40,781 nucleotides of DNA, taken from contig CAZIDO010000002.1 in NCBI GenBank assembly GCA_964538005.1, forward strand, positions 1 to 40,781. The letters are read 5' to 3'. A program made the position numbers and the translations under genes. This DNA comes from an uncultured Muribaculaceae bacterium (lineage in GTDB: Bacteria; Bacillota_I; Bacilli_A; RF39; UBA660). Each line of letters begins with the position of its first letter. The stretch's first letter is position 1. Under the pieces are notes generated by a model. That model saw only the letters and a list, made by a program, of their open reading frames with translations. It did no database searches and had not been told where the DNA came from. This document shows, piece by piece, positions 1,331 through 35,257 of the stretch.

Positions 1331-1402
1331 ATATAAATATGCGTTTATTAACGGGCTTGCACAGACTTTGAATTTTAGTCTATATTTTCTGAAGGCAGGG
1401 GT

Positions 1403-1498: not shown

Positions 1499-1570
1499 TG
1501 GTACAACAAGTACCTTTTTGTATTATTACAATCAAATAAAAATAGACTTATATAGAGGGGAGGAATATAG

Positions 1571-1846: not shown

Positions 1847-2187
1847 AATCCTTTTGTTTTCACATATTCTTTAGCTTTTCTTATATCTTCTTTTTCGGTT
1901 GACCAAATTAAACGTGATTTTGCTAAAGCGTCATCGTCAGCTAGGGTTGGATCAGAATCAAATTGCAATCCTAGTCCATCTAAAACATCGGCAATCAATT
2001 GAGTATATTTGTAATCTGTTGGAATGCTATTTAATGTACTTGGATTAATAGCAGCATCTTGTGCAATTCTATAAACCTCTTCTTCAAATGTTGGCTCAAT
2101 CTCTTCGGCCTCAACCTCTGGCCAATCACAATTAACTGCGATTTCTGAATTTACTATTACTTTAGTCATTTCGTCTCCCCCAATCAT
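1843..2187 (-). CDS. Hypothetical acidic protein (about 108-114 aa)
   Basis: The ORF converges on the previous gene. The likely true start is the internal ATG at 2169, preceded by GGGGGAG. Very acidic sequence with no family recognised. Confidence 0.5.
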   Translation of the reverse strand: MIGGDEMTKVIVNSEIAVNCDWPEVEAEEIEPTFEEEVYRIAQDAAINPSTLNSIPTDYKYTQLIADVLDGLGLQFDSDPTLADDDALAKSRLIWSTEKEDIRKAKEYVKTKGF

Positions 2188-2303
2188 GATAATCTACACC
2201 TACATCATATAATTAAATATCGTAATTGTCAATAAATAATTTGTCGTATTTTGTATTTATGGTTTACAAAGAGAGAACCCTGATATATAATAAATAGGTA
2301 GAA

Positions 2304-3068: not shown

Positions 3069-3107
3069 AAGTATTATGTGTTTTTTATTGGTAATTGGGG
3101 CTTTGGG

Positions 3108-3136
3108 TTGTAAATGAAAGGTATTTATATTATAAT
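3108..3136 (+). promoter_or_regulatory. Sigma-A-type promoter for the ecf-truA operon
   Basis: TTGTAA (3108-3113), 17-nt spacer, TATAAT (3131-3136). It lies just after a hairpin and T-run that terminate the SDR gene (about 3061-3090). Confidence 0.55.
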
Positions 3137-3142
3137 AAATAA

Positions 3143-17663: not shown

Positions 17664-18120
17664 AGCTATAGGAATTTTAGTAATGACGGCAAATATTAAT
17701 TTGAATACAGTAACTATTGAAGAATTATATTATCAAAACCCCATTATCGAAATTCCTAAAATAAATTTAAATAAAACCTTATATCCTGAAGATAAAACAA
17801 AAAATAATGTTAATAAAAACATCGAAATAATTAGTGGCTCTAAACTACCAAATACAACTAATGGTAACTTAATATTAGCTGCTCATAGTGGTAATACTAA
17901 AAATGCTTATTTTAATAATCTGGATAAGCTTAAATATAATGATACAATATATGCGTATTATCGTAATAAAAAATATAAATATGTAATTAGTGACATTTAT
18001 GATGTACCAAAAACTGGGTATATAAATATCAAAAGAAAATTAGATAGAACAACTATCACTTTAATAACGTGTAAAAAAAATACAAGCTTACAAACAGTAT
18101 ATATTGGATATTTGCAATAG
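17644..18120 (+). CDS. Small sortase-family transpeptidase
   Basis: 158 aa. Contains LILAAHSG (His) and TLITC (Cys). Overlaps the substrate gene by 20 nt. No Arg occurs after the catalytic Cys (see findings). Confidence 0.75.
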   Translation: MAKSLIKAIGILVMTANINLNTVTIEELYYQNPIIEIPKINLNKTLYPEDKTKNNVNKNIEIISGSKLPNTTNGNLILAAHSGNTKNAYFNNLDKLKYNDTIYAYYRNKKYKYVISDIYDVPKTGYINIKRKLDRTTITLITCKKNTSLQTVYIGYLQ

Positions 18121-18215: not shown

Positions 18216-18881
18216 ATGTTTAATTATAAATTGGGTATTATTTTAGTTTTTGTAGCGGCATTATTAACTTTCAATTTTGTTAGTGCTAAAAATAAAGATT
18301 TACCATTACTGTCAAAAGTAATTTATTTAGATCCGGGGCATGGTGGGATTGACTGTGGAGCTTTTTATAAAGATGTTAAAGAATCGGATTTAAATTTAGA
18401 GCTTAGCAACAGTATAATGAAAGCTTTAAAAGCAGATGGAGCTACTGTATATTTAACCAGATATGACGACTATGATTTATCAGTTAATAATGCATATAAT
18501 CGAAAAAGAAGTGATTTATCAAGAAGAGCAAATATCATTAATAAATCAGGATGCGATATGTTTATTTCTGTTCATTTAAATGCTGATGCGACTGAAACCT
18601 GGACTGGTGCGCAAGTATACTATGATAATATAAACTCAGAAAACGTTAAAATAGCAGATATTATGCAAGAAGAATTAAAACGTTATTTAAAAACCACTAG
18701 AGAATATAAAGAAAATAATACAAAGTATATGCAACATCGTATCAATCGACCGGGAGTTTTGTTAGAAGCTGGTTTCATGTCGAACGCTAATGAAAGATAT
18801 TTGCTACAGCAAACATCGTATCAAGATAAAATAGCAGAGGTCGTTAGGAAATCCATTGTAAAATATTATAAGAGTTTATAG
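18216..18881 (+). CDS. cwlD: N-acetylmuramoyl-L-alanine amidase, CwlD-like (Amidase_3)
   Basis: IYLDPGHGGIDCGA, SVHLNA and LEAGFMSN motifs, an N-terminal anchor, and a location downstream of rplM-rpsI as in Bacillus. Confidence 0.75.
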   Translation: MFNYKLGIILVFVAALLTFNFVSAKNKDLPLLSKVIYLDPGHGGIDCGAFYKDVKESDLNLELSNSIMKALKADGATVYLTRYDDYDLSVNNAYNRKRSDLSRRANIINKSGCDMFISVHLNADATETWTGAQVYYDNINSENVKIADIMQEELKRYLKTTREYKENNTKYMQHRINRPGVLLEAGFMSNANERYLLQQTSYQDKIAEVVRKSIVKYYKSL

Positions 18882-18934: not shown

Positions 18935-19876
18935 GTGAAAAGTATGACTAATAAAATATTTAGAACAATTGATGAACAAATCGATATATTAAAATCAAAA
19001 GGCTTAGTAATAACTGATGATGATAGAGCTAGAGACATTCTATTTAGAGAAAACTATTTCTTTATCAGTGGATATCGTCATATGTTTATGGCTGATAATA
19101 AACCAAATCGTTTTTTGCCAGGCACGAATTTTGAAGAATTATATGCGACGTTTACCTTTGATCGTAAACTCAGAAATACGTTTTTTAAAAATATTTTAAT
19201 AGTAGAGAACAACATTAAATCTATTATTAGTTATCAATTATCAAAGAAATATGGATTTAGGGATAAAGATTATCTAAATCCTAAAAACTTTACTCAAGAC
19301 AAGCTCGCTGATCGCCAAGTTAGAGATATTTTAAATAAGGTCCATAGACAGATTAGAGTCAATGGGCGTCAGCATACGGCGACAATGCATTATATCGACA
19401 ATTATGGATATATTCCAATGTGGATTTTAGTAAAAGTTTTATCTTTCGGAATTATGGGCGAATTTTATGGCATATTAAAAACAGATGATAAACAAGCTAT
19501 CGCCAATTTTTATCATCTCGATGGTGAATTGTTAGAAATATATTTAACAATTATCTCTAATTTCAGAAACGTATGTGCTCATGAAGATATTTTATATGAC
19601 CATCATACACAAAGATTATTACCTGATACTAAATATCATGAACTTCTAAATATTCCTACCATTGATGATGTGTATAAATATGGTAAGAATGATTTATATT
19701 GTTTAATTATAATGTTAAAACAATTGCTACGTAAAGAAGAATTTGAAGATATGATGAATGAAATAAAATGGGAAGTTGACACTTTGGATGAAGCTGTTGA
19801 TACAGTTTCCCTTAATAGTATTTTAAATAAAATTGGATTCCCAGATAATTGGTATGAAATAAAAAATCTAAATTAG
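18935..19876 (+). CDS. Abi_2 (AbiD/AbiF-like) abortive-infection protein
   Basis: The N-terminus ...TIDEQIDILKSKGLVITDDDRARDILFRENYFFISGYRHMF and the later NFRNVCAHEDILYD are typical of the Abi_2 family. The likely start is ATG 18944. Confidence 0.8.
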   Translation: MKSMTNKIFRTIDEQIDILKSKGLVITDDDRARDILFRENYFFISGYRHMFMADNKPNRFLPGTNFEELYATFTFDRKLRNTFFKNILIVENNIKSIISYQLSKKYGFRDKDYLNPKNFTQDKLADRQVRDILNKVHRQIRVNGRQHTATMHYIDNYGYIPMWILVKVLSFGIMGEFYGILKTDDKQAIANFYHLDGELLEIYLTIISNFRNVCAHEDILYDHHTQRLLPDTKYHELLNIPTIDDVYKYGKNDLYCLIIMLKQLLRKEEFEDMMNEIKWEVDTLDEAVDTVSLNSILNKIGFPDNWYEIKNLN

Positions 19877-22582: not shown

Positions 22583-23008
22583 TTAATGTATTTCTGGGCA
22601 TTCACCAGGTGCTGGCTGATAAAAGCAATGGCCTTTATATCTTCCGGTATTGTCTTGATCCCACCAAGTTGCCTTACATGCCTGACCTGTTGTTGGAGCA
22701 TAAAACCACAACGCATTTGTTGCTGGATGAAAGTATTCTCCTTTAATCACGCGGTCAGCTAGTCTTTTTTCTAAAGTCGTAGGATTACTAAAAAATAACG
22801 GACTATCTTTTCCAGAAAAACCTCCTGGGGTTTGATAAATCACTTCAGGAATTGTTCTTGTGTTTTTGAAAGTCAAACAGTTAGCAATGCCTCTGTTAAC
22901 GACAACGTTACCAACCATCAGCATTCCGAGGTCACCTTCCCCAATAGCTTCTGCTCGCATTAGACGAGCTAACATATCACGGTCTTTATCTGTCGATTGT
23001 ATAATCAT
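22583..23008 (-). CDS. SleB/CwlJ-family cell-wall (spore cortex-lytic) hydrolase
   Basis: MLARLMRAEAIGEGDLGMLMVGNVVVNR ... QTPGGFSG ... is the Hydrolase_2 (SleB/CwlJ) signature. No signal peptide, so CwlJ-like. Confidence 0.85.
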   Translation of the reverse strand: MIIQSTDKDRDMLARLMRAEAIGEGDLGMLMVGNVVVNRGIANCLTFKNTRTIPEVIYQTPGGFSGKDSPLFFSNPTTLEKRLADRVIKGEYFHPATNALWFYAPTTGQACKATWWDQDNTGRYKGHCFYQPAPGECPEIH

Positions 23009-23092: not shown

Positions 23093-23168
23093 AGGGGCAT
23101 AGTTCAGCTGGTAGAACGTTGGTCTCCAAAACCAAATGTCGTGGGTTCAAATCCTGCTGCCCCTGCCA
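23093..23168 (+). tRNA. trnW: tRNA-Trp (anticodon CCA)
   Basis: 76 nt. Acceptor stem AGGGGCA/TGCCCCT; anticodon stem TTGGT/ACCAA with loop CTCCAAA; T-loop TTCAAAT; encoded 3' CCA. Confidence 0.93.
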
Positions 23169-24897: not shown

Positions 24898-25239
24898 TCA
24901 GTTGTTAAAAATAAAATTCAATAAACAAAAATTAGAATTAGAGCAATTTATTTCGTTACATTTCCTTTTTTTATTTTTACATACACAAATAGTATAATTT
25001 AATGACTTCGGAATTCTTAATGAGTAATTACCACATAAGTTAGTTATTGTGCTGGCAATCTTTAATCCACATTGATATATAGTTACCTTAGCGCATGACA
25101 GTCCAACAATACATTCTTTTTCTTTTGAGTAATACATACAAGTACCACATAAAATCAATTCATCTTCTAAAATCAAGTCTAAATTTATCTCATTATTATT
25201 TACAAATATTTTTTTAGACGTTGTAAAAGTCGAATTCAT
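24898..25239 (-). CDS. Small Cys-rich protein (113 aa, 11 Cys) with a CarboxypepD_reg-like beta-sandwich pattern
   Basis: Its start lies 1 nt after the upstream stop (TAAaATG), which suggests coupling. The pattern ...AKVTIYQCGLKIASTITNLCGNYSLRIPKSLNYTICV resembles the domain repeated in the upstream gene. No signal peptide. Confidence 0.55.
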   Translation of the reverse strand: MNSTFTTSKKIFVNNNEINLDLILEDELILCGTCMYYSKEKECIVGLSCAKVTIYQCGLKIASTITNLCGNYSLRIPKSLNYTICVCKNKKRKCNEINCSNSNFCLLNFIFNN

Positions 25240-25240
25240 T

Positions 25241-26101
25241 TTAAATAATCTCTGATTTTTTAGATTTCACGATATATGTACCATTAGTAACACTACCAAA
25301 CATGTATCTTCCATTAGTGTTTGTATAGGTGTTTGCCGTAAGAATCTCATTAATACCATTTATTCTGTATAAGCCCACAAAGGCATTTGGTACTACTATT
25401 CCTGAAATTGTTTTGACTTGTCCTGAAACCGTTGAACCAATATTCCCGACACTGCTTTTTAGTGACATATCCCCATTAAATTTTTGTTTATCAGATAACT
25501 CAACATTAGATACCTCTTCCGAATTATATCCATCTTTCTCATAGGAAAGTGTATACGTCCCATTATCAATATTTTCAATTATGAACTCGCCATCTTTAAT
25601 GCTTGTAGTTGTTGCTTTTAAATTACCGTTTTCATTAGTCCCTTGGTATAAAAGTATTTCAGCGCCTACTAAATATGCCCCTGTATTAAAATCTTTTATT
25701 TTCCCGTAAATTACATTTTTAGACATTTTAGCATTAGGCGTTATTACTAAGTTCATTGTTACTGGAATAATTGTCGAAATCGGTAAAGTAAGCCCTACTG
25801 ATAAGATATAACCATCTTTAACCGCAGATATTAGATATACACCAAGTGGTAAACTTCCAATTGTATAACTTCCATCGCCATTTGTCACCGTATGATTATA
25901 CGGAGTACCATCGCTTTTAAAAACTTTAACCGTTGCGCCACTAACAACATTTCCTGTTAGGAAAGTAGTATCATATACTTTTCCTTTGACACTTCCTGTG
26001 GTAATTGTTGTAGCATTACTTAGATTTAAATTAATATCCTGTTCACTATTTTTTAATTCAAATGATTCTGACGCTGATAATTCCAATTTATCACTATTCA
26101 T
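25241..26101 (-). CDS. Protein with three tandem CarboxypepD_reg-like (prealbumin-fold) domains, no signal peptide
   Basis: The pattern repeats three times: GKVYD..VSGATVKVFKSDGTPYNHTVTNGDGSYTIGSLPLGVYLISAVKDGY; GKIKD..LVGAEILLYQ...TTTSIKDGEFIIENIDNGTYTLSYEKDGY; GQVKT..VPNAFVGLYR...TYTNTNGRYMFGSVTNGTYIVKS. RBS GAGGAGGG. Confidence 0.75.
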   Translation of the reverse strand: MNSDKLELSASESFELKNSEQDINLNLSNATTITTGSVKGKVYDTTFLTGNVVSGATVKVFKSDGTPYNHTVTNGDGSYTIGSLPLGVYLISAVKDGYILSVGLTLPISTIIPVTMNLVITPNAKMSKNVIYGKIKDFNTGAYLVGAEILLYQGTNENGNLKATTTSIKDGEFIIENIDNGTYTLSYEKDGYNSEEVSNVELSDKQKFNGDMSLKSSVGNIGSTVSGQVKTISGIVVPNAFVGLYRINGINEILTANTYTNTNGRYMFGSVTNGTYIVKSKKSEII

Positions 26102-26260
26102 TTGTATCCCTCCTCGTATTATATAATATGGTTCTTTTTATTTATTGATAAGGTCATCTTAATTATAATTTTCTAATGCTTACTGTAGGATAATTAATTT
26201 CAAAATAATAATCACTAAACCAAATTATTCAAAAATTCACAAGAGTGGTTTTATGTAATA

Positions 26261-26288
26261 ACCACATTTACATACTCCTCATATTATA
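26261..26288 (+). promoter_or_regulatory. Sigma-K-like (late mother-cell) promoter candidate
   Basis: AC (26261-26262), 17-nt spacer, CATAttaTA (26280-26288). This matches the B. subtilis-type AC-N16-17-CATAnnnTA pattern, 33 nt upstream of ATG 26322. The match is low-information in AT-rich DNA. Confidence 0.35.
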
Positions 26289-26294
26289 TTTTAG

Positions 26295-27308
26295 ATGAAA
26301 CAGTTGAAAGGAAGGATAGTAATGTATATAAAATCAAGTCTTAATTTAAATACTAAAGGAATTTATAATAACATGACGGTACGAAACAATGAATATCATT
26401 TACTTGATGATACTAGTAAGATATATAAATACGATGAAAAATTTAACTTTGTAGATACAGAAAAACTAGATAGAAACTTTAAGTTGTTGACTTATAATGA
26501 AAATGATTACATTTATTTAATGTCTTTAGAAAACAGTTCTAAAAATCTAAAAAAAGTTAATTTTAATTATGAAGAATATGCTGATTTAATAATAAAAAAC
26601 ACACTTTTAAAAATACACAATCTAAAAGACATTTATTATGATAAGTACCATAGCCGATATTTAATCGCTGATAAAAGGCATGTTTTTTCCATTGATAAAG
26701 AAGGAAACTTTTTAAAAAATGAAGTTCTTAATGATGAATTCTATGATTTAAAAATTGACATCGATTGTTGCCAAAAAGAAGAAATAATAAATCCAAAAGA
26801 TTTTAGTTTCACGGCTGTTGGCACAGATGGAAAATATAAATATGTCGCCTATACAAAAAACAAATCAGCATTTATTGCTAAAATATCAGAAAATGGTTCT
26901 AAAATAGATGATGTGTATGTGGGCGATAATATTGTAGTTAATTCCATCGTCTTTAATAATAAAAAAATGTTAGCCTTAGCTAATGATAAAAAAAATGATA
27001 TTATCTACGAAATTGAATACGATTTATCGAAAATAATAAATCCTAAACTCGAAGAAATTATTAATAAACTTATTGAACTATTAAATAATGTGTCTATAAA
27101 TGAAGTAGGGGTATCAACAATCATCAATACCGAAATGGAAAAAGTAAAAAAAATCATGGAAACAACAAAGGATCCAAACATTATATTAGAAGCCAACAAT
27201 TCTGCCACAAAAATGATTACAGAGGCTGTTGGTTTAGAAGATGCGCAGTACAATAATTTATTAATAATATTAGAAACCATAAAAGAATTAGAGTCATATT
27301 TAAATTAG
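26295..27308 (+). CDS. Hypothetical protein: beta-rich N-domain plus the C-terminal helical module shared with the giant and the 81-aa protein
   Basis: The likely start is ATG 26322, after GAAAGGAAGGA. The N-terminal roughly 240 aa show propeller-like strand repeats. The C-terminal 87 aa (27045-27305) align with 33841-34086 and with the giant's C-terminus. No signal peptide. Confidence 0.7.
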   Translation: MKQLKGRIVMYIKSSLNLNTKGIYNNMTVRNNEYHLLDDTSKIYKYDEKFNFVDTEKLDRNFKLLTYNENDYIYLMSLENSSKNLKKVNFNYEEYADLIIKNTLLKIHNLKDIYYDKYHSRYLIADKRHVFSIDKEGNFLKNEVLNDEFYDLKIDIDCCQKEEIINPKDFSFTAVGTDGKYKYVAYTKNKSAFIAKISENGSKIDDVYVGDNIVVNSIVFNNKKMLALANDKKNDIIYEIEYDLSKIINPKLEEIINKLIELLNNVSINEVGVSTIINTEMEKVKKIMETTKDPNIILEANNSATKMITEAVGLEDAQYNNLLIILETIKELESYLN

Positions 27309-27333
27309 TGATTATTAATTTTTATACCAAACT

Positions 27334-27359
27334 AAAAAAGGAAAATTTTCCTTTTTTTT
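27334..27359. terminator. Palindromic A/T-flanked hairpin (bidirectional terminator-like)
   Basis: AAAAAAGGAAAATTTTCCTTTTTT lies between the convergent genes 26295-27308 and 27436-33675. Confidence 0.5.
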
Positions 27360-27394
27360 AGTGCATATAACTAAGGCCCATTTTTACCATAACT

Positions 27395-27426
27395 AAAAAG
27401 CAAATAAGATTTTTAAACTTATTTGC
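27395..27426 (-). terminator. Rho-independent terminator of the giant gene
   Basis: On the minus strand, stem GCAAATAAG/CTTATTTGC with a 9-nt loop is followed by TTTTT. Confidence 0.65.
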
Positions 27427-27435
27427 TAATTACAA

Positions 27436-30400
27436 TTATTCATTAGTATATATTTTTTTTAAAATCAAACTTAGTTTATTCCTTGAAATAGTTTCAAATA
27501 GACTAAGCGTTATTATCATTTTTGTTATAGAGTCATTAATCCTAATAATCATGCTAGGATCTTTACTTTTCGCTAAAATAGTTTTAAGTTTATTAATTTC
27601 TGAAATAATAATATTATAAACAGAAAATTCTTCCGTTGCAATTACCATTAAGAATCTTATTAATTCAGGCGTTATAGTGTCTACAATTGATGTATATACC
27701 GCTTTAGACGTAGCTGTCTGATAATGTGTTTGCTCGTTTAAATCTTGGTATTGATACGCTACAAACGATTCATTTTTAATATTTAAACCAGTTCTAACCG
27801 CTTTAACATCAAAACCAATTGCCATAATCATTCCACTACTGATATTAGGAAGAACTAAATCCTCAATATTTCCTTGTACCGAAATATTATCAATCGTTAT
27901 TGAATTAGTTATAATTTCATAACGTTCATCAATTATATCCGTTAATTTAAGATTAGTAAAACTAATTGGTGCATCATTAAATAAATAAATATCGAAATGA
28001 TTAATATCATTTAAAACAAGAACTTTTTTAGAAAAATCTTTATGAATTTCCAAAAGTGGTACCAGAAAAGGTGTTACTGAAGTGACTAGTGGATAACTTT
28101 TTAAACTTTCCGTTATTTCCCTTCCTTGCTCATCTAAATATGTATAATTAATATGAGCATATTCAATAATATTATCAGCTACTGTCCTTCCCTTTAAATC
28201 AAACGTTAAAATGACATAATCATCCTGCAATAAAGGTCCAATATAAATTCCTTCGGTTAAATCTCCTTCAATTTTTTTCCCATCCCGTTTTAATGTTCCT
28301 GGAACAAAACTATATTCCGTTGGAATTGGACTATTAATGCTTACATCGTAAGTTACCTTAAAACCTTTATTTATTCCAATAATTCTTGCTTGAAGCGTTT
28401 CACCAACCATTACTTCATTGCGGTTAGCGTCTAATATAAGATCCATCTTAGGAATAATACTATCTACAATATCCGTAGTAGTTTCCGCCCACACTTCCTT
28501 TTGAATAAATACATTATTTAAATCAGTATAGTGATACTCTAATTTTACTTTATTAAGTGCCGCATTTTTCACACTTTTAGCCTTAACTTGATAAGTCAAA
28601 ATATGTGATTCATTAATCTTTAACTTTTCAAATTCAATACCATATAAAATATTTAAATCACTTGGAACATTATCAATTATTAAACTGTTTGCAACAAGTT
28701 CAAAAGCATCATCAAGAAAATCGGTAATTGTAATCGCTTCCGCATCCACGCTTCCAATATTAGTCATTTTAATTGTAAAATCAAGTGTTTCCTTAAGCCC
28801 TGCCATCTTATCAGCTGATTTTTCTAAGGAAATAAGAGCAATATCTTTTTCTAAAATATTAGTCGTAGTTGAATTACTCATTACGCCCCTGTAATTAATG
28901 TCGCCTAAACTATCAGTATAACTATAAGACACATTAGCAAAATTAATAATATTAGCTCCACTTATAGTCGCCATAGCATCAAATTTTACCGTCTTCTCTT
29001 CGCCTGGATTAATAGTTCCAACCGAAATAGAAGCTACCACTTCATTTTGTGATATCATTCCGTTATTATCAATAATTTGAATTGTATTTGGAATTATAGT
29101 ATAGTTATCAATCAAATAATTATCTAATTTTATATCATTTAAAACAACATTCCCATCATTTCTAAAATTAAAACTAAAAGCATTAATTTCCTCTAAATAT
29201 AAATTAGTTTTACTTACTTTTTGATCAACATTTATAATAACCGAATCTTTATCCTTAACCGTTAAATAAACAGGATTACTCATAGATTGTTTTTTAATAA
29301 TTTGATCTAAATTGTTTTGGTATGAATAAGCAACAGAAGCTTCATTTTTAATATTATCACCACTAGCTAACGGAATAGCTATAAATTCAATTACCAATTC
29401 CTCTTTCGGTAACAATTTATTAATGTTAATTCCTCTAATTAAATCACTAGCAATAACACTGTCGCCAATTTTAATTGACCCTGTTTTTAAAATAAATTCA
29501 ATTGGAAGATAATCCTTAACCGAAATATTAACAGCCTCTTTATTGCCATTATTTCTAATCGTTAAATAAAACATAACTTCATTAGTTACCGAAACGATTG
29601 TTGGATGGGCTTCTTTAATAATAACCACATCAGCTACCGTCTCTTCATAAACATTAGTAATTGAAGCATTACTTTGTGCGGTCATTTTAACTAATTTGCT
29701 ATTTTCATTAGTATACTCATAAGTTGCATCAACAATGTTTTTAATTGTTGTCCCTACCTTTTTAGCAAACGTTGAAAAAACAATATCAACTTTAGAATTA
29801 GGATTTATAGATACAATAGAAATATTGTTTGGTGAATAACTAGATTTTACCCCATCAATAGTTAAAGTATCATCTATGTACTCATACTCACCCGGTAAAA
29901 TATCAGTTAAAATAATATTTTGGGCATTTGTATTTCCTACGTTAGTAACCGTTAGGACAACATCATCCGTATCATTAAGTAGCCTATTTAAAGTCTCTAT
30001 TTTTGTTATCGTGAGTATTGCCTTTAACCCTTCTGTAATATTAGTATAATCCTTGTTACTGTAATTAGTATGAGTAATTTTATTAGCCAAAACATCAGTG
30101 TATGAAAAACTTACTTGAGCTTCATTTAAAACATTTGATTTATACGCTAAAGCTCTTACCTTAAAACGCAATGTTTTAGTTTGATGAGCTAAGATTTTTT
30201 CTAATTTTATCCCCTTAGTAATATTTTGAGCATTTGCCAAGCCATCAATAGTTAATGAATTTTCAATAAATGCATATTCATTCGGCAAACGATCTAAAAT
30301 TACTATTTCTTTTGCGTCAACATCCGTATCATTTAAAAGCTCAATTACAAAAGTATTCTCTTCATTAAGCTTAACCGTTTCCAATAAGTGTGATAACGTT

Positions 30401-33400
30401 ATAGAAACATTGGCAACTTTCTTTTCAATAATTGAAGTTAAGATAGGAATGCTGGAAATTGTTTCAGAAATTATTTCACCATTATTAGGGTCGTATTCAT
30501 AATTTGTTATAGCTGTATTTTTAATATTTGTTCCTATCGTTTGGCCAAGAGTATCAAATGATATTCGTTTTTTCTGATTAGGTAAAATAGTATCTAAATT
30601 AATTCCACCTTCTATTTGATTAGATGAAGCAACCCCATCTATTACTAAACTATTACTTATAATTGTGTAATGTGGATCTAAAATATCAATAACGACAACA
30701 TTATTAGCCGCAATATTACCGATATTTTGAACTTCCAAGGTAAAAGTATTTTTTTCATTAAGAAAAATAGTATCGTATAAAGCTGTTTTTTTAGTAATCA
30801 GCGTTGCTTCTTTTTTTTCATTTATACTAGTATATATATAATTACTAACACTAGATGCGACAATTTTTATATTATCTTTATTAAAATATTCGTAGCTTGA
30901 ACTAGCCTGATTAGAAATATCATTACCTAAGGCTCCAGCAATCGCCATAAATTTAATGGTTTTAGTTTGATTAGCTGCCATCGGACCAATATCTAAACCA
31001 ACTTCTATATCACCTGAAACATTTACCCCATCAACTGTTATTGAATTGTCTTTTAATGTATATTTACTATTTAAAACATCGGTTATCTTTACAACATCAG
31101 CTGACTTATTACCAATATTGGTAACCTTTAAAATAAACTCGGCATCTTCGCCTAAAAATACCTCGGGATTAGTGCAGTCTTTATCTATTTTAATAATAGC
31201 CTCTTCCATTTGTCCTATTTCATTTTTCCATCTATTACTACTACTTGTTTGTGTAATCATCGAGCCACTTTCATTTTCATAACTATAAGTTGCATAAGCC
31301 GTATTATATACATCTGTTCCAGCTTTTACTGCATTTGCCGAAAATTCAACCAAAGATTCCTGATTAGCTAAAATATTATCGATAGATATTCCTGTTTTAA
31401 TGTTTCCCGTCACTGATTTACCATTAACCATAATCGTATTAGGTAATATCTCGTAATTATCTGGAAGATCATCCCTAAAACTTATGTTGTTAGTGCTTAC
31501 GTTCCCTGTATTTCTTACATCAATACTAAAATGAACAATATCATTAAGTGCATAAATTGCTTTACTAGTATGTTTTTCTAGTGTTAAATTAGCCATCTTA
31601 ATTTTACTTATGTGAAAAGTTACGACATTACTGTTAGCCTGATTAGTAACCTTAACCCCAGCTAAGTTCGTATAATCATACTGCGCAAAAGCCGTATTTT
31701 TAATATTTCGTAATTCTCTTTTTCCTAAAACGGTATATCCAATAGTTACGGAATCTAATGGGTTTAAATCCTTTATAGTGATTCCGGAAACAATATTATC
31801 GCTTGTCTTAACATTATCAATGACTACACTTCCAAGAACAAATTCTAGTCCATTGGGTATAATGTTAAATACTTTAATATTTTGTAACTTGATAGTCCCA
31901 GTATTTACAAGTAATAAAGCAACCGTCGTCATATCGTTTTCATATAAATTGACTCTTCCTGCTGACTGATCAATCGTCAAACTTTGTAAAAAAGCTTTCG
32001 TAATGTCAATAGAAACATCATTACTTGAAATAGTCGTCTCCATTGAAGTACTATTTAAGGAATATTGTACCTTAGCTGATGCTTTAGTTATTATCCCTGT
32101 TTTTGTGGTTTTAGGTAATGCGGAAAACGAAATTGTTTTTTCCTCTTCAATTCCTAAATTATTTATCGCTAAACCAGTCGTTATATCATCACTGACTGCC
32201 GTGCCATTTACTTTAATTGAACCCGGTTTAAAAGTTAACTCGTTATTTAAATCATCAGTAATAACAATATTAGATAGTTCAACAGTTCCCGTATTCTTAA
32301 GAATAATTGTAAAAAGAACCTCTTCATTCAAATAATAAGATAATTTATTACTATTTTTAGTTAAGCTAGCGCCAAAAGCTGGTTCTCCAAGAACATGCAC
32401 AAAGACCTCATTAGTTTGCGCATCAAGTATCTTAGCTTTGCCATCTCGTTCATAGTGCCCTGCTAAAATAGCGCTATTAGGAATCCTTGTGGCAATAGTT
32501 TTCGCCCTAACTTGGTATTCTATTTTATAAGTTTGATTAGCTGTTAAATCACCAAGCTCGGTGACCTCCATAAAATTACCGGTCGTTACGCCATTTATTT
32601 TTGTGCTGCCATCGATATATTCAAAAAATGGATCCAAATTATCTCTAACGCTTACGTGATTTAAAGTCATATTACCAATGTTTTTAAGATTTACGGTAAA
32701 ATTTAAAATATCATTTACTTTGCAAGTGGTTTTATCCACGCTCTTTGTATATAAAACAGCCACATCTTCTCTAGAAATAACATCTACTAAAACGATATTA
32801 CTTGTTTTTCTAATTGTCTGCGTACCTCCATCAGGGTCAGTATAGTTTGCACTAATCATTACGGAGTTTGGTATTTTACTTTTCATAACACTGCCTATAA
32901 CTCTAAAGGTTACAATCGATTCGTTGCTTCCAGCAATCCCTCCAACCATTACATTAGATAAATCGTTTTCGCTACTTGTGGTACCATTTATAGAAATACT
33001 ACCTTGAACCAATGTTAAACCAGAATCAAGCTGATCGTTTAATATAACATTATTTAATGTGACAAAAGCTGTATTTTTAATTGAAACTGTATATTCTAAT
33101 TCTTCGTTTTCAAAAGCTACTGTTTTATTACAAGTTTTAATAACTTCAAAATCACCCGTTGTTTTATCAATTATATTAAATATAAGTTTAGTGCTTTTTT
33201 TAAGTAAAGTTTCTTTTTCACCCGTTGCATTTATAAAGCTTGCTGAACCATCAACAAGATTTGCTGCATAGCCAGTGGAAGTAGCGGTTACATTAAATGT
33301 CACAACTTTCGTACCTCCGATATTGACGTTTCCAATCACAATTGGATTATTGAGATTATCATTGTTTTTTACACCATCTATTACTAATGAATTATCGACA

Positions 33401-33675
33401 AAAGTAAAATGATTGTCTAATACATTAGTTAATTGTAAATCAGAAAGGTTTGTGTTTCCTGTATTTTGAACTGTAATTGTAAATTTAAGAATATCATCTT
33501 TAAAACAATTAACTTTGCTTGATATCATATCAATCGTATAATTACCAAGCGGGGCGTCCACTATTTTCAATGTTGATATTTCACTATCCATATTGGCAAT
33601 AGATGTTAAAACTTCGTCCATTTGATTTACTTCCTGAGAATTTTTCTCTAAGGAAGAATTAAAATCAGATTTCAT
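27436..33675 (-). CDS. Giant (2079 aa) protein of about 15 tandem DUF11-type ('conserved repeat domain') modules with a C-terminal helical module; no signal peptide, TM or LPXTG
   Basis: Uninterrupted 6.2-kb ORF with RBS AAGGATGG. The recurring roughly 130-aa unit has hallmarks such as ..L.FTI.V.NTGN....N..I.D.L......V..S..IDGV.......GI.I..I...Q......F.A.A...G..I.N.A...Y.Y... The N-terminus is hydrophilic (MKSDFNSSLEKNSQEVNQMDEV...). Confidence 0.9.
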   Translation of the reverse strand: MKSDFNSSLEKNSQEVNQMDEVLTSIANMDSEISTLKIVDAPLGNYTIDMISSKVNCFKDDILKFTITVQNTGNTNLSDLQLTNVLDNHFTFVDNSLVIDGVKNNDNLNNPIVIGNVNIGGTKVVTFNVTATSTGYAANLVDGSASFINATGEKETLLKKSTKLIFNIIDKTTGDFEVIKTCNKTVAFENEELEYTVSIKNTAFVTLNNVILNDQLDSGLTLVQGSISINGTTSSENDLSNVMVGGIAGSNESIVTFRVIGSVMKSKIPNSVMISANYTDPDGGTQTIRKTSNIVLVDVISREDVAVLYTKSVDKTTCKVNDILNFTVNLKNIGNMTLNHVSVRDNLDPFFEYIDGSTKINGVTTGNFMEVTELGDLTANQTYKIEYQVRAKTIATRIPNSAILAGHYERDGKAKILDAQTNEVFVHVLGEPAFGASLTKNSNKLSYYLNEEVLFTIILKNTGTVELSNIVITDDLNNELTFKPGSIKVNGTAVSDDITTGLAINNLGIEEEKTISFSALPKTTKTGIITKASAKVQYSLNSTSMETTISSNDVSIDITKAFLQSLTIDQSAGRVNLYENDMTTVALLLVNTGTIKLQNIKVFNIIPNGLEFVLGSVVIDNVKTSDNIVSGITIKDLNPLDSVTIGYTVLGKRELRNIKNTAFAQYDYTNLAGVKVTNQANSNVVTFHISKIKMANLTLEKHTSKAIYALNDIVHFSIDVRNTGNVSTNNISFRDDLPDNYEILPNTIMVNGKSVTGNIKTGISIDNILANQESLVEFSANAVKAGTDVYNTAYATYSYENESGSMITQTSSSNRWKNEIGQMEEAIIKIDKDCTNPEVFLGEDAEFILKVTNIGNKSADVVKITDVLNSKYTLKDNSITVDGVNVSGDIEVGLDIGPMAANQTKTIKFMAIAGALGNDISNQASSSYEYFNKDNIKIVASSVSNYIYTSINEKKEATLITKKTALYDTIFLNEKNTFTLEVQNIGNIAANNVVVIDILDPHYTIISNSLVIDGVASSNQIEGGINLDTILPNQKKRISFDTLGQTIGTNIKNTAITNYEYDPNNGEIISETISSIPILTSIIEKKVANVSITLSHLLETVKLNEENTFVIELLNDTDVDAKEIVILDRLPNEYAFIENSLTIDGLANAQNITKGIKLEKILAHQTKTLRFKVRALAYKSNVLNEAQVSFSYTDVLANKITHTNYSNKDYTNITEGLKAILTITKIETLNRLLNDTDDVVLTVTNVGNTNAQNIILTDILPGEYEYIDDTLTIDGVKSSYSPNNISIVSINPNSKVDIVFSTFAKKVGTTIKNIVDATYEYTNENSKLVKMTAQSNASITNVYEETVADVVIIKEAHPTIVSVTNEVMFYLTIRNNGNKEAVNISVKDYLPIEFILKTGSIKIGDSVIASDLIRGININKLLPKEELVIEFIAIPLASGDNIKNEASVAYSYQNNLDQIIKKQSMSNPVYLTVKDKDSVIINVDQKVSKTNLYLEEINAFSFNFRNDGNVVLNDIKLDNYLIDNYTIIPNTIQIIDNNGMISQNEVVASISVGTINPGEEKTVKFDAMATISGANIINFANVSYSYTDSLGDINYRGVMSNSTTTNILEKDIALISLEKSADKMAGLKETLDFTIKMTNIGSVDAEAITITDFLDDAFELVANSLIIDNVPSDLNILYGIEFEKLKINESHILTYQVKAKSVKNAALNKVKLEYHYTDLNNVFIQKEVWAETTTDIVDSIIPKMDLILDANRNEVMVGETLQARIIGINKGFKVTYDVSINSPIPTEYSFVPGTLKRDGKKIEGDLTEGIYIGPLLQDDYVILTFDLKGRTVADNIIEYAHINYTYLDEQGREITESLKSYPLVTSVTPFLVPLLEIHKDFSKKVLVLNDINHFDIYLFNDAPISFTNLKLTDIIDERYEIITNSITIDNISVQGNIEDLVLPNISSGMIMAIGFDVKAVRTGLNIKNESFVAYQYQDLNEQTHYQTATSKAVYTSIVDTITPELIRFLMVIATEEFSVYNIIISEINKLKTILAKSKDPSMIIRINDSITKMIITLSLFETISRNKLSLILKKIYTNE
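27691..33540 (-). repeat. About 15 tandem, highly diverged protein-level DUF11 domain repeats (each roughly 125-135 aa)
   Basis: I counted 15 occurrences of the (V/I)xNxGN ... IDG(V/L) ... NxAxxxY core by reading the translation. The repeats are not conserved at the nucleotide level. Confidence 0.7.
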
Positions 33676-33840
33676 ATAAATATACCATCCTTTATTATAT
33701 ATTTTTTAAGCATATAAATATCTCATCCCCTTTCATGATAACTTATGCACCTTTAAAAATATAATTAAGTTACATCGTCTAAAAATAAAATAACAAAGCA
33801 AAAAAAACATATTTAAAAAAATTAAATATGAATTTCCATC

Positions 33841-34086
33841 TTAATTTAAATAAGGCTTTATCAGTTCCAATTTTTGATTCAATAAAGTCTCTAGGTTATT
33901 AACTTCTTTAATTAAATTATTAACCGATTGATTAACGAGTAATATCTCTTCCGGTGTTCCGCCAAGATCAATCACTTTTTGGATTTTTAAAGCTTCCTGA
34001 TCTAATAAACTTGATATTGCCTCTTGTTCATCAGCAATCGAGGAAGCAATGTTATCAATCGCCTCACTAAAAGTTGTGTCTTTCAT
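33841..34086 (-). CDS. 81-aa all-helical protein consisting solely of the shared module
   Basis: RBS AAGGAGGAAAT. The sequence IDNIASSIADEQEAISSLLDQEALKIQKVIDLGGTPEEILLVNQSVNNLIKEVNNLETLLNQKL aligns with the C-termini of the 337-aa and 2079-aa proteins. Confidence 0.65.
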   Translation of the reverse strand: MKDTTFSEAIDNIASSIADEQEAISSLLDQEALKIQKVIDLGGTPEEILLVNQSVNNLIKEVNNLETLLNQKLELIKPYLN

Positions 34087-34156
34087 ATTTCCTCCTTTTT
34101 TAAGATATATATTGATTTTCTATTTATATCTGCCTTGTCTTTTTATCAATAATTAA

Positions 34157-34321
34157 GACAATTGTTTTTCAATTATATTGTATGAATAGTTTTAAAATAG
34201 AACAATATAAATCGCCTAAATAAAAATTTAACAATCAATTTTATCCAGGGCTTATTTAAATATATATTAGAAGAAAAGAAATTTTTAAATGCGTATTTAG
34301 TAAAATAGAACAATTGTTTTT
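34157..34321. repeat. Repeated boxes in the divergent intergenic region (TAAAATAGAACAAT x2; ACAATTGTTTTT x2 with the palindromic core ACAATTGT)
   Basis: TAAAATAGAACAAT occurs at 34193-34206 and 34301-34314. ACAATTGT occurs at 34158-34165 and 34310-34317, each followed by TTTT. Confidence 0.35.
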
Positions 34322-34364
34322 TCCTAAAAAACATATAATGTAATGAAATAATTGGAGGGATTTT

Positions 34365-34724
34365 ATGAAGAAAATTAAAATTAAATGTTTGTTATGTGAC
34401 AGCTTAGATATCTATAAATACCATATATATATGTATGATTGCGATGGTAGATTAGTCGAAGATACTGAAACAAAACAAGGCTGTGCTCTTCTAAATGTTG
34501 AGAGGTTAGGATTATACAAAATCATTATAATCCCTAAAGGATGTTTACTTCCGTGTAGGATAGTTAAATGTATTTATATAAATAATGATATTACTAATTT
34601 TCTATTTACTTTTAATAAATTTGTTTGTAAAAGACATTCAATTATTGTAAGGTTAACGGATAAACATTATAAAGGTTTGTCTGTTGCGAAAGGAGAAATG
34701 CATTTATGGAAAATAAAATTGTAA
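34365..34724 (+). CDS. Small Cys-rich protein (119 aa, 8 Cys), beta-sandwich-like
   Basis: RBS TGGAGGGA. Contains IYMYDCDGRLVEDTETKQGCALLNVERLGLYKIIIIPKGC. The C-terminal motif RLTDKHYKGLSVAKGEMHLW is shared with the next ORF's C-terminus. No signal peptide. Confidence 0.55.
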   Translation: MKKIKIKCLLCDSLDIYKYHIYMYDCDGRLVEDTETKQGCALLNVERLGLYKIIIIPKGCLLPCRIVKCIYINNDITNFLFTFNKFVCKRHSIIVRLTDKHYKGLSVAKGEMHLWKIKL

Positions 34725-35257
34725 TTCACATTACCAACGGAGGAGGAAGCACTCAAATTGTTAATGGAAATTATAACATTACCTCATCTACTTTAGGATA
34801 TGATGACACAACAATCGACCCTGCCGCAGTAGAAATAACTGATGCAACCGAAGGCTACGATTTTATGGTTGGTGCTACAGGCGTTCTAACGTTACATGTT
34901 TCTGACGATGGAACAGATGCCGGAGTTCCAATAGTCGGCGCAAAATTTGCCAGATGTGATGCTGAAGGAAAAATCTATGGAGACGAAGTTATATCTGATG
35001 ACTCGGGTAATGCAGTATTTAATCATGTTCCCTTTTCTGCCGAAGAGAATGCCCCAGTGGTTTACTACAAACAAACCGCCTCAGATGGACAGCACACTTT
35101 TGCTGCAGAATTAAAAAATACTACTTTAGCTGAAGAAGCGGTATTAGTTGAATTACAAAATGAAGAAGCGGTACTTAAGAATTTTAAATTAACCGATTTA
35201 AACTATAGCGGCTTACCAATTGCCGATGGTCAAATACATGCAACAGTAGCAGAATAA
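34706..35257 (+). CDS. Ala/Gly/Asp-rich prealbumin/SpaA-like beta-sandwich protein (183 aa), no signal peptide
   Basis: RBS AAAGGAGA. Contains LTLHVSDDGTDAGVPIVGAKFARCDAEGKIYGDEVISDDSGNAVFNHVPF...YYKQTASDGQHTF. Ends in KLTDLNYSGLPIADGQIHA. Visibly more G+C-rich than its neighbours. Confidence 0.7.
   Translation: MENKIVIHITNGGGSTQIVNGNYNITSSTLGYDDTTIDPAAVEITDATEGYDFMVGATGVLTLHVSDDGTDAGVPIVGAKFARCDAEGKIYGDEVISDDSGNAVFNHVPFSAEENAPVVYYKQTASDGQHTFAAELKNTTLAEEAVLVELQNEEAVLKNFKLTDLNYSGLPIADGQIHATVAE

Follow-up and report, generated by a model that had tools for sequence, protein, structure and literature searches.

Introduction

Among described systems, the one closest to the locus analysed here is A-ENA, or 'sporesilk', from Bacillus thuringiensis sv. 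israelensis (Bti; Q8KNV8, PDB 9ihh, PF26595; Sleutel, Sogues & Remaut, Nat Commun 2026), a mother-cell product that polymerises into self-assembling, self-crosslinking fibres associated with the spore (PMC13111695). The experimental record of Bti A-ENA covers cryo-EM, the isopeptide bonds, a reporter for its SigK promoter and the association with spores; in the solved fibre, the type 2 isopeptide bond links donor K42 to acceptor N64 with E39 as the catalytic residue (PMC13111695). A-ENA fusions have equally been noted, including the 'A-BclA' ruffles and an SdrD_B/OmcB (PF01345) passenger class (PMC13111695). Among other appendages, F-Anchor-3 of the Clostridium aceticum F-ENA combines DUF4183 with up to 4 DUF11 domains and a CsxA-like domain (PMC12357932), and the C. 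taeniosporum appendage proteins CRD1, CRD2 and P29 contain DUF11 (PMC5749712).

In the window, the whole stretch of 40,781 nucleotides analysed here, which derives from a low-GC gut 'Bacilli bacterium' known only from metagenome assemblies, the genes g5, g4 and g3 probably encode an A-ENA-type (alpha-helical) endospore appendage system. Judged from its sequence, the locus is a new example of the A-ENA 'sporesilk' system in an uncultured gut bacterium, with some architectural features that are undescribed. The initial annotation had proposed a new, undescribed type of spore-surface fibre; the spore-fibre inference was essentially right, but the fibre type had already been described, the A-ENA family having been published in March 2026 with Pfam entry PF26595, and the predicted cross-links do not involve cysteine.

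Organisation of the locus

All seven open reading frames of the initial annotation, with two divergent junctions and one convergent junction, are present:

24898-25239, minus strand: g1, 113 aa with 11 Cys
25241-26101, minus strand: g2, 286 aa with 3 CarboxypepD_reg domains
26102-26294 and 34087-34364: divergent junctions, from ORF coordinates
26322-27308, plus strand: g3, 328 aa, open frame from 26295; beta-propeller and C-terminal A_ENA module
27309-27435: convergent junction g3/g4, from ORF coordinates
27334-27357 and 27400-27426: two terminator-like hairpins in the g3/g4 junction
27436-33675, minus strand: g4, 2079 aa; N-terminus of ~50 aa, 15 CLIPPER (DUF11) domains and C-terminal A_ENA module
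33841-34086, minus strand: g5, 81 aa; single-domain A_ENA without Cys
34365-34724, plus strand: g6, 119 aa with 8 Cys
34706-35257, plus strand: g7, 183 aa, CnaB-like, overlapping g6

The core system, as read from these sequences, consists of the three genes g5, g4 and g3, all of which carry the A_ENA module. Of the 'seven-gene locus', what stands is the module common to g3, g4 and g5, whereas g6-g7 are an independently conserved pair and g1 and g2 were seen in none of the related loci compared.

The common helical module

A helical module common to three products, as initially annotated, is real: the C-termini of g3 and g4 match by blastp (E=6e-10; g5 is weaker in pairwise comparison), the modules of all three proteins align with 12 invariant columns, and one module HMM run against the six-frame ORFs of the window matches exactly these three modules and no others. 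A profile built from them matches PDB 9ihh, entitled 'Ex vivo spore-silk A-ENA fibers', with E=2.7e-5 over chain residues 16-86, the next-best PDB matches being ~1000-fold weaker, and alignment of g5 with Bti A-ENA by hhalign gives 91.8% probability (E=7e-7). Equally, precomputed Pfam annotation assigns PF26595 A_ENA to g5 orthologues and to the fusion proteins, in a family with 1215 representatives at E<=1e-3 that show A-ENA-like architectures. Pfam and NCBIfam scans returned no match for g5, in Pfam because the set scanned was without PF26595, and Bti A-ENA itself was likewise unmatched; assignment of the window modules to A_ENA was made without direct use of the Pfam gathering threshold for PF26595. 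We assign the common module to A_ENA, the alpha-helical hairpin subunit of alpha endospore appendages, and the A-ENA homology thereby makes it the predicted polymerising fibre subunit itself and not merely the common anchoring module of the earlier reading.

The residues of the isopeptide bonds (numbered as in Bti A-ENA) are conserved to different extents. The type 2 residues E39/K42/N64 are invariant in all three modules, as is E78, and g5 and g4 also retain the type 3 residues (K84, E29/Q, E28). In g5's own numbering the triad is E31/K34/N52 and the type 3 set K72/Q21/E20, and the g4 module keeps equivalents of E28, E29, E39, K42, N64, E78 and K84. Of the 5 isopeptide types, g5 has complete residue sets for only 2; the protein lacks the N-terminal latch, the donors of types 4 and 5 and the type 1 catalyst, and its fibre may therefore deviate from the solved one in geometry and in the density of cross-links. 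Cys-rich cross-linkers like CotY/ExsY/CdeC, as previously suggested, do not fit these features, since A-ENA fibres use autocatalytic intermolecular isopeptide bonds, g5 contains no Cys and members of the g6 family differ in where their cysteines lie.

Subunit and fusion proteins

The presumed major fibre subunit, a predicted helical hairpin, is g5, the gene with the strongest ribosome-binding site (Shine-Dalgarno AAGGAGG). The parts of g4 and g3 are as follows:

27727-33525, minus strand: CLIPPER/DUF11 array of g4, residues 51-1983
27439-27675, minus strand: A_ENA module of g4, residues 2001-2079, HMM domain E=6.7e-24
26322-27017, plus strand: beta-propeller of g3, from AlphaFold and Foldseek
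27024-27305, plus strand: A_ENA module of g3, module HMM E=2e-23

The description of g4 as a DUF11 giant is upheld by profile searches (DUF11 E=1e-101; TIGR01451 5e-104), with 15 repeats of a period of ~130 aa according to a repeat HMM built on g4. [quoted passage not shown] The start of g3 is most likely the ATG at 26322 (328 aa), in agreement with public gene calls. Its AlphaFold model (pLDDT 88.7) shows ~22 strands and a hairpin (H241-281/H285-327), and Foldseek matches NHL, WD40 and glutaminyl-cyclase propellers, so that the N-terminal domain, previously taken for a beta-sandwich, is a predicted beta-propeller. The propeller-A_ENA architecture recurs in 30 of the best 148 family representatives; the main text of PMC13111695 does not mention beta-propellers among its passengers.

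Related loci show the same division into subunit and fusion proteins. L001, L012 and L094 carry a subunit and CLIPPER-A_ENA pair with variable repeat number, the g4 orthologues ranging from 3-4 to >20 repeats and all ending in A_ENA, while L096 and L098 combine a canonical subunit with propeller-A_ENA; L096 has in addition a pAdhesive_15-A_ENA fusion. On plasmid p347 of B. mycoides, four DUF11 proteins end in A_ENA.

Export signals, promoters and spore genes

That none of the seven products has a signal peptide, TM segment or LPXTG motif is confirmed. The maximum Kyte-Doolittle 10-mer within the first 40 residues is <=1.62 in the seven proteins versus 1.9-4.0 in five membrane or exported controls from the window (2.5-4.0 for sortase, TED, CwlD-like and HtrA), and the scan of the seven found neither a 19-mer >1.8 nor a lipobox or C-terminal sorting signal. 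The following promoter-like elements were identified:

26260-26288, plus strand: SigK-type promoter match AACCACATTTACATACTCCTCATATTATA (AAC-N17-CATATTATA), 33 nt upstream of the g3 start
34176-34184, minus strand: CATACAATA, mother-cell-type -10 element, 89 nt upstream of g5, no matching -35
33739-33747, minus strand: CATAAGTTA, -10-like element, 63 nt upstream of g4, leader conserved in L001
26122-26130: CATATTATA, -10-like element near g2

The SigK-like match noted earlier upstream of one gene is thus real and belongs to g3, the only locus gene with a full -35/-10 match; the regular expression, which gives six matches on both strands of the whole window, also finds the SigK site of Bti a-ena, which is published and was validated with a reporter. 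With -10-like CATA elements also upstream of g2 and g6, CATAnnnTA precedes 4 of the 5 transcription units in the locus at a distance of <=100 nt, compared with 3 among 32 other genes (p=0.0025, Fisher test). In AT-rich DNA, the ordinary sigma-A -10 overlaps with elements of the CATATAAT type.

The cwlD and SleB/CwlJ hydrolase genes reported initially are both present, a SleB/CwlJ-type Hydrolase_2 gene at 22583-23008 and a cwlD-like gene at 18216-18881, the product of the latter, however, staying below the curated equivalog cutoff (best NCBIfam match TIGR02883, 194.8 bits against 221.6). Collagen-like GXY runs do not occur in the window, in line with the reported lack of BclA. The lineage of the organism, among uncultured Bacilli of orders like RF39, RFN20 and ML615J-28, is predicted to comprise both sporulating species and species that do not sporulate (PMC10868615).

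Proposed assembly and role

The earlier view that signal-less 'surface' proteins with a common module form a secretion-independent, self-assembling spore-surface structure is borne out by the homology to A-ENA. Late in sporulation, the mother cell would produce g3, g4 and g5 without signal peptides, and g5 would stack into cross-alpha protofilaments. Stacking would align Lys with Asn/Gln side chains, which would then join autocatalytically to give a covalent polymer, to be freed together with the spore upon mother-cell lysis. Co-polymerising via their C-terminal A_ENA hairpins, g4 and g3 would be covalently fixed in the fibre or at its end, g4 displaying a 15-CLIPPER stalk, about half of it self-stapled by intramolecular isopeptide bonds, and g3 a beta-propeller as the likely binding head. 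The topology of g4 would be that of a fibrillar adhesin with the sortase anchor replaced by a self-polymerising fibre subunit, and the likely role is clumping and spore-spore or spore-substrate/host adhesion.

Alternative explanations

All seven genes might, as initially proposed, form one functional unit, with g6-g7 and g1-g2 as Cys-rich and beta-sandwich parts of a basal, coat-like or cross-linking kind that serve assembly or anchoring of the A-ENA fibre, a reading to which we give a minor chance. In the window, L012 and L094, the A_ENA subunit and the CLIPPER giant have g6-g7 as immediate neighbours, in three different gene orders; export signals are absent from all seven proteins, CATA elements precede g2 and g6, the g7 fold is pilin-like (AlphaFold pLDDT 94; Foldseek matches to CnaB/SpaA-type pilin domains), g6 and g7 share a 26-aa C-terminal motif (hhalign 96.6%), g1 resembles the g6 family weakly (hhalign 65%), and 13-14 of 80 g6-g7 loci have collagen-like (BclA-like) genes close to the pair. 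However, g6-g7 are widely conserved in uncultured gut Bacilli, the pair being kept without A_ENA genes in at least 60 of 80 loci from GTDB species representatives, and homologues of A_ENA, the CLIPPER giant, g3, g1 or g2 were found within 10 kb in 0 of these 80; conversely, the A-ENA clusters of L001, L096 and L098 are without g6-g7, and the Cys positions vary within the g6 family. As the window, L012 and L094 are each other's closest relatives, shared ancestry could account for the adjacency, and because it is confined to these three, a link of g6-g7 to the A-ENA system is possible but unproven; the pair may represent a conserved spore-surface component beside which the fibre genes sit. The three CarboxypepD_reg domains annotated in g2 are recovered by Pfam (E=4e-31), but since neither g1 nor g2 has a homologue in any related locus compared (few searches covered them), their membership is unsupported.

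A vegetative, non-spore matrix or adhesin fibre, with A_ENA polymerising outside or on cells after lysis or by an unknown export route, would agree with a sporulation capacity predicted only at the level of a mixed lineage (PMC10868615), with the single full SigK-type match and with CLIPPER stalks being typical of vegetative fibrillar adhesins (PMC12617251); yet every characterised A-ENA is spore-associated and mother-cell expressed, the family occurs in Bacillales, Clostridia and the endospore-former Pasteuria (PMC13111695), spore-cortex genes are close by, and the genome's TED adhesin uses Sec and sortase, whereas the locus proteins are signal-less, which makes this fibre improbable. That a short (~80 aa), helical module unmatched in the Pfam and NCBIfam scans is a generic coiled-coil, a WXG100/T7SS-like hairpin or an intracellular scaffold, resembling A-ENA by coincidental low-complexity matching, is highly improbable given the equally unmatched Bti A-ENA, the position-by-position conservation of functional isopeptide residues, the far weaker other PDB matches, the large family of A-ENA-like architectures and a window without WXG100 or EssC genes. 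Prophage or mobile-element cargo with a tail-fibre-like giant, an origin named in the initial annotation as contrary to its reading, might be suggested by tRNA-Trp at 23093-23168 with an Abi_2 gene near, an IS91 transposase adjoining the g5 orthologue in L003 and genomic contexts that differ among relatives; it is rejected as extremely improbable, as 0 of 7 proteins match a PHROG family, g7 and g2 have no IMG/VR relatives, housekeeping genes of the chromosome flank the locus (ecfA-ecfT-truA-rplM-rpsI, htrA, MFS transporter) and the base composition is uniform.

Comparison with known systems

As a candidate A-ENA-type appendage system, the locus shares with Bti A-ENA the helical-hairpin domain without signal peptide, the type 2 triad and type 3 residues, a small single-domain subunit accompanied by fusion proteins that carry this domain too, and a promoter element of the SigK type. 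Unlike Bti A-ENA, g5 with its 81 aa is without the 13-residue N-terminal latch and has only 2 of 5 isopeptide types complete; the locus, from a MAG of gut Bacilli, is chromosomal where that of Bti is on a toxin plasmid, and it has no adjacent amidase and no Cry/Cyt genes; and the passengers of g4 and g3 (15-repeat CLIPPER stalk, beta-propeller) are N-terminal to the module, whereas the Bti collagen/C1q passenger is C-terminal. A passenger tethered to the fibre via A_ENA is common to the A-ENA fusions ('A-BclA', B. mycoides p347), and in p347 DUF11/CLIPPER passengers are equally N-terminal to A_ENA, although with 1-2 DUF11 domains and Cys-rich tails compared with 15 repeats and no Cys tail in g4.

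F-Anchor-3 and CRD1/CRD2/P29 resemble the window proteins as signal-less spore-appendage proteins of anaerobic Firmicutes with DUF11/CLIPPER as variable-length spacers, but their polymerising or docking module is the DUF4183 beta-barrel or CsxA in place of the A_ENA alpha-hairpin, and the Pfam scan detected no DUF4183, DUF3992 or CsxA domains in the window proteins. With sortase-anchored adhesins and pili (CnaA/CnaB/CLIPPER; BcpA, SpaA and the A. silvestris CLIPPER adhesin, PDB 9IFR), the locus shares a tandem isopeptide-stapled Ig-like stalk and, as predicted, covalent polymerisation or anchoring via Lys-based amide bonds; in contrast to these, the window proteins have neither signal peptide nor LPXTG nor sortase dependence, and the A_ENA hairpin would anchor and polymerise autocatalytically.

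Locus organization and export signals

The seven open reading frames under study, g1 to g7, were all found exactly where they had been annotated when checked against the coordinates, and the orientations of the reading frames confirm two divergent junctions and one convergent junction:

24898-25239, minus strand: g1
25241-26101, minus strand: g2, three CarboxypepD_reg domains
26295-27308, plus strand: g3, predicted propeller with C-terminal helical module
27334-27357: terminator-like hairpin in the convergent junction g3/g4
27400-27426: second terminator-like hairpin in the same junction
27436-33675, minus strand: g4, giant protein with repeats and C-terminal helical module
33841-34086, minus strand: g5, small protein consisting of the helical module
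34365-34724, plus strand: g6, Cys-rich family
34706-35257, plus strand: g7, overlapping g6

Translation of g3 probably starts at 26322, resulting in a protein of 328 aa. The domain content proposed by the initial annotation was borne out by Pfam and NCBIfam for the DUF11 array and the CarboxypepD_reg domains (in g2, E=4e-31), while the N-terminal beta-sandwich postulated for g3 has to be replaced by a predicted beta-propeller.

With a crude hydropathy test, calibrated on five membrane or exported proteins encoded in the same window, an N-terminal hydrophobic region, TM-like segment, lipobox or C-terminal sorting signal was not detected in any of the products of g1 to g7, and hydrophobic regions were present in all five controls, most strongly in the sortase, the thioester-domain (TED) protein, the CwlD-like amidase and HtrA. 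The signal-less nature of all seven products, as previously proposed, thus holds, and neither a signal peptide nor an LPXTG-type sorting signal as in sortase-dependent pilins and adhesins is found in the seven proteins. A classical sortase-dependent adhesin pair is located elsewhere in the window (16770-18120), where the gene for the TED protein (16770-17663), with signal peptide, VPVTG motif and a subsequent hydrophobic and charged tail, overlaps a class C sortase gene; the organism consequently exports other surface proteins by a conventional route.

The neighbourhood in the window is chromosomal, including ecfA-ecfA-ecfT-truA-rplM-rpsI, htrA and genes for a YfhO-family protein and an MFS transporter. 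Equally, an abortive-infection-like Abi_2 gene (18935-19876) is located between the cwlD-like amidase gene and htrA, and a tRNA-Trp gene (23093-23168) lies 1.7 kb off the locus. A prophage origin, which had been named as an observation that would speak against a spore structure, is effectively excluded by negative searches against PHROGs with all seven proteins and against IMG/VR with g2 and g7.

A common A_ENA module in g3, g4 and g5

Alpha-helical endospore appendages (A-ENA) have been described for Bacillus thuringiensis israelensis (Bti), where they form two-start cross-alpha fibres of 8 nm on the spores and the parasporal bodies (Sleutel, Sogues & Remaut, Nat Commun 2026, PMC13111695). 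The subunit described there is a helical hairpin of 101 aa, contributes to ten intermolecular isopeptide bonds that form autocatalytically and fall into five types (IPB1 to IPB5), and is produced exclusively in sporulating cells, under a SigK promoter. An N-terminal latch (residues 2-14) docks along the Bti fibre and forms IPB1; residues 1-8 of A-ENA1 are unresolved (PMC13111695), such that the latch may be dispensable for the family.

The helical module previously noticed in three products of the locus is real, as demonstrated by blastp (C-termini of g3 and g4, E=6e-10) and by a three-way alignment of g3, g4 and g5 with 12 invariant columns, and is confined to these proteins within the window. 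A profile built from the three modules matches chain A of the solved Bti fibre (9ihh_A) with E=2.7e-5, aligning profile positions 8-74 with chain residues 16-86, with the PDB matches ranking next being around 1000-fold weaker, and hhalign of the module against Bti A-ENA reports a probability of 91.8%. Furthermore, the g5 orthologues P0013, P0018 and P0019 and fusion proteins of relatives carry a precomputed annotation for the A-ENA hairpin domain A_ENA (PF26595; E<=1e-5 class). Scans with Pfam and NCBIfam gave nothing for g3, g5 and g6; in the case of g5 this is explained by the absence of PF26595 from the Pfam copy scanned, in which Bti A-ENA itself is equally unmatched.

The AlphaFold model of g3 ends with a helical hairpin (H241-281/H285-327, local pLDDT around 85-90), within the range of approximately 70-90 residues of the family, and g5 and the g4 C-terminus align to this hairpin with gaps at the loop only. 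Judged from sequence, the module of g3 to g5 is an A_ENA domain, with its hairpin fold predicted from the g3 model and the alignment. A generic coiled coil or a T7SS/WXG-like hairpin is effectively excluded by the strength of the 9ihh match and the conserved isopeptide residues. In Pfam and NCBIfam, none of the products of g1 to g7 matched other appendage and surface-layer families, namely DUF3992 (S-/L-ENA), DUF4183 (F-ENA) and CsxA/ExsY/CotY, at E<=0.1, and Cys-rich lattice proteins of the CsxA/ExsY type were rejected for the locus.

Isopeptide residues and the g5 subunit

The gene g5, preceded by a strong Shine-Dalgarno sequence, encodes a single-domain subunit of 81 aa without Cys. In a residue table in which the window modules are aligned with Bti A-ENA, A-ENA1, orthologues and B. 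mycoides fusion proteins, the IPB2 triad (catalyst E39, donor K42 and acceptor N64 in Bti numbering) is invariant in g3, g4 and g5 and kept in 9/10 aligned relatives, the exception being an Ile at N64 in one B. mycoides protein. The IPB3 set (K84, E29/Q and E28) is kept in g4 and g5, and E78 in all three modules. The residue sets for IPB1, IPB4 and IPB5 are incomplete: the window proteins have no equivalents of the donors K76 and K77 or of the catalyst E41, and no N-terminal latch. The columns invariant in the 10-sequence alignment are exactly E31, K34, N52, S54, E66 and L73 (g5 numbering). Lys donors, Asn/Gln/Glu acceptors and Glu catalysts are thus in place, with formation of the bonds themselves being predicted. 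Relative to Bti A-ENA, the g5 protein starts around 11 residues further downstream and does not possess the MPxIP motif of the latch. As g3 is devoid of equivalents of the donor K84 and the catalyst E28, it may be fixed by fewer bonds, which, speculatively, might bias the protein toward a terminal position in the fibre.

The passenger domains of g4 and g3

The DUF11 family (PF01345) has been renamed CLIPPER upon determination of a crystal structure (PDB 9IFR) with an Asp-catalysed Lys-Asn isopeptide bond (PMC12617251). The g4 protein matches this family with E=1e-101 in Pfam (14 stretches) and with 5e-104 for TIGR01451, and an HMM built from g4 itself delineates 15 repeats of around 130 aa each, resulting in the order short N-terminus, 15 CLIPPER domains and C-terminal A_ENA module. 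Based on the positions K715/D748/N806 of 9IFR, the full K/D/N triad is found in seven of the 15 repeats and the Asn in 13, with a spacing of K-34-D-56-N versus 33 and 58 in 9IFR. Upstream of g4, a 13-codon open reading frame (MKGDEIFICLKNI; 33695-33736, minus strand) is located between a -10-like element and the start of g4, and the leader sequence of g4 is also conserved upstream of the orthologue in the related locus L001.

For g3, the AlphaFold model (pLDDT 88.7) predicts a beta-propeller of around 22 strands succeeded by the A_ENA hairpin, with Foldseek matches of the N-terminal domain to NHL, WD40 and glutaminyl-cyclase propellers. PDB sequence searches with g3, and likewise with g7, gave no match.

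Distribution and fusion architectures of A_ENA proteins

A word-indexed search with the module profile and g3 recovers near-identical orthologues only, with three close g5 orthologues obtained by the module profile, so that exhaustive HMMER was required to see the family, which comprises 1215 proteins at E<=1e-3 among 1.84 billion representatives. Scans of genome contigs with the g5 orthologues and two scans of metagenome contigs with g5 and the g4 C-terminus as queries gave no match, and the broad 10-sequence A_ENA alignment is too divergent for pattern scanning. Among the best 148 of the 1215 proteins, 73 are single-domain, while the module is C-terminal to a passenger in 53 and N-terminal to one in 13. 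A g3-like propeller is found in 28 of these 53 C-terminal fusions and CLIPPER repeats in 7, making propeller fusions the most frequent fusion class in this best-scoring set.

The relatives' loci display diverse combinations of these architectures. Downstream of the g5 orthologue in L001 is the gene for a protein of 468 aa, with 3-4 CLIPPER domains and A_ENA and 52% identity to the g4 C-terminus, indicating that CLIPPER repeat number varies between relatives. The B. mycoides plasmid p347 (NZ_CP036148.1, 2967-10775) encodes a tandem series of four DUF11 proteins (678, 554, 241 and 217 aa), all of which end in an A_ENA module and a Cys-rich tail, and thereafter a RICIN-domain protein, in what looks like a multi-passenger A-ENA cluster. 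Two low-GC MAGs encode canonical, latch-bearing subunits (MSMPIIVP...), in L096 (7570-10158) a 91-aa subunit with a propeller-A_ENA and a pAdhesive_15-A_ENA fusion, and in L098 (8001-9970) a propeller-A_ENA fusion and two small A_ENA proteins. In L003 (355-1533), an IS91-family transposase gene is located directly upstream of a g5 orthologue, which suggests that the pair of subunit and giant moves between genomic contexts.

Extent of the unit

The common module and the recurrence as a group (g3, g4 and g5 all in L012, g4 and g5 in L094) indicate that g3, g4 and g5 belong together. That all seven genes constitute a single functional unit, as the initial annotation had proposed, was weighed against the behaviour of the overlapping pair g6-g7. 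The g7 family consists of proteins of around 180 aa (371 relatives, hits in 171 GTDB species), with all hosts being uncultured gut MAGs labelled as Bacilli, Tenericutes, Mollicutes, Erysipelotrichaceae or 'Clostridium sp. CAG'; the AlphaFold model of g7 itself is confident (pLDDT 94) and all-beta, and matches CnaB-type pilin domains. The g6 family is Cys-rich and 110-120 aa in length. Both families, without signal peptide, share a 26-residue C-terminal motif (xLTDxxYxGLPIxxGxxxLW, hhalign 96.6%), and the pair extends across uncultured gut Bacilli, with at least 171 species represented, the g6 homologue being found directly upstream of the g7 homologue in at least 60 of 80 loci from GTDB species representatives (L014-L093). 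Homologues of A_ENA proteins, the CLIPPER giant, g3, g1 or g2 were not found within 10 kb of g6-g7 in these 80 loci, yet the pair adjoins subunit and giant in the window, L012 and L094, which harbour the closest g7 relatives (all 67% identical), in three different gene orders. The pair is therefore treated as independently conserved, with a possible link to A-ENA, and the unit by common module is restricted to g3 to g5. Of the 80 loci, 13-14 have collagen-like genes beside g6-g7; a collagen-like BclA is absent from the window, as had been reported. In L094, a DGR-like cassette (MutS_I, bAvd and the reverse transcriptase RVT_1; 1346-3186) lies upstream of g6-g7 at a distance of around 6 kb, and a gene for a Big_2 protein is close by.

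Homologues of g1 and g2 were not found in any related locus. Hints at a membership of g1 and g2 are confined to a weak similarity of g1 to the g6 family (hhalign 65%) and a -10-like element upstream of g2, and a paralogy of g2 and g7 was rejected (hhalign probability 2%).

Possible link to sporulation

A regular expression for SigK promoters (AC-N16/17-CATAnnnTA), which recovers the published Bti a-ena site, matches 33 nt upstream of g3, in agreement with the sigma-K-like promoter noted before, and equally upstream of the g5 orthologue in L012. A CATAnnnTA -10 element is present within 100 nt upstream of 4/5 transcription units of the locus versus 3/32 other window genes (Fisher p=0.0025), one of the latter being the SleB/CwlJ-like gene; as such elements overlap ordinary -10 boxes in DNA of 28% GC, this enrichment is only suggestive of mother-cell promoters. 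A scan for sigma-70 and terminator consensus sequences was uninformative in this 28% GC DNA (83 hits versus 74 expected). The cwlD-like amidase and the SleB/CwlJ-type hydrolase previously taken as signs of sporulation are both encoded in the window. The cluster of TruA at 90% identity points to an uncultured 'Bacilli bacterium' as the organism, and among related uncultured orders both sporulating and non-sporulating species have been predicted (PMC10868615). A vegetative matrix fibre was considered as a less probable rival to the spore appendage, given that the characterised A-ENA are spore-associated and expressed in the mother cell.

Proposed mechanism and implications

On the reading as a spore appendage, the g3 to g5 proteins would be produced in the mother cell without export, with g5 stacking into cross-alpha protofilaments in which bonds between K34 and N52 (catalyst E31) and between K72 and Q21 (catalyst E20) would form by proximity to give a covalent fibre. 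The g4 and g3 proteins would insert through their hairpins, g4 presenting its 15 Ig-like domains as a stalk and g3 its propeller as a head, and lysis of the mother cell would free spores wrapped in or bearing fibres, leading to clumping or adhesion. The biology of the spore fibre initially proposed is largely retained; its novelty, its cross-linking chemistry and the extent of the unit are not: A-ENA has been in print since March 2026 and has a curated Pfam entry, its fibres are cross-linked by isopeptide bonds, and g5 does not contain Cys.

A wider reading, which we regard as rather unlikely, is that uncultured reduced-genome gut Bacilli (RF39, RFN20 or ML615J-28-like) form spores with a distinct latch-less, minimally cross-linked A-ENA fibre with propeller heads and 15-domain CLIPPER bristles, mounted on the g6-g7 pair, which is conserved throughout the lineage and would be a hitherto unrecognised base on the spore surface for interchangeable fibres of the A-ENA or the collagen-like kind. 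If that reading were true, the beta-propeller-A_ENA fusion would be a widespread, undescribed class of spore adhesins. The spore appendage would place A-ENA fibres in uncultured, host-associated gut Bacilli with sporulation only predicted, and the locus would serve as a marker with the testable prediction of appendage-bearing spores, relevant to host-to-host transmission. Equally, the A_ENA hairpin is a putative general, sortase-free covalent anchor for adhesin-like passengers, and a minimal 81-aa two-bond subunit of the g5 type might find use in engineered self-ligating protein materials.

Comparison with known systems

By the predicted features of its proteins, the locus is an example of A-ENA in a new host group, with three variant features: a latch-less two-bond subunit, a giant with 15 CLIPPER domains and the recurring fusion of beta-propellers to the module. 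Compared to Bti A-ENA, g5 is latch-less with complete residue sets for two bond types only, while a Bti-like latch is present in the subunits of L096 and L098. A variable number of CLIPPER domains has likewise been reported for the DUF11 spacers of F-Anchor-3 (PMC12357932). In its main text, the A-ENA paper names collagen/C1q, SdrD_B/OmcB(PF01345) and 4Fe-4S as passengers, with a beta-propeller not among them; its full list comprises five passenger classes (PMC13111695). Propeller fusions and CLIPPER stalks of at least 15 domains would thus extend a picture centred on the collagen/C1q ruffles of the B. cereus group.
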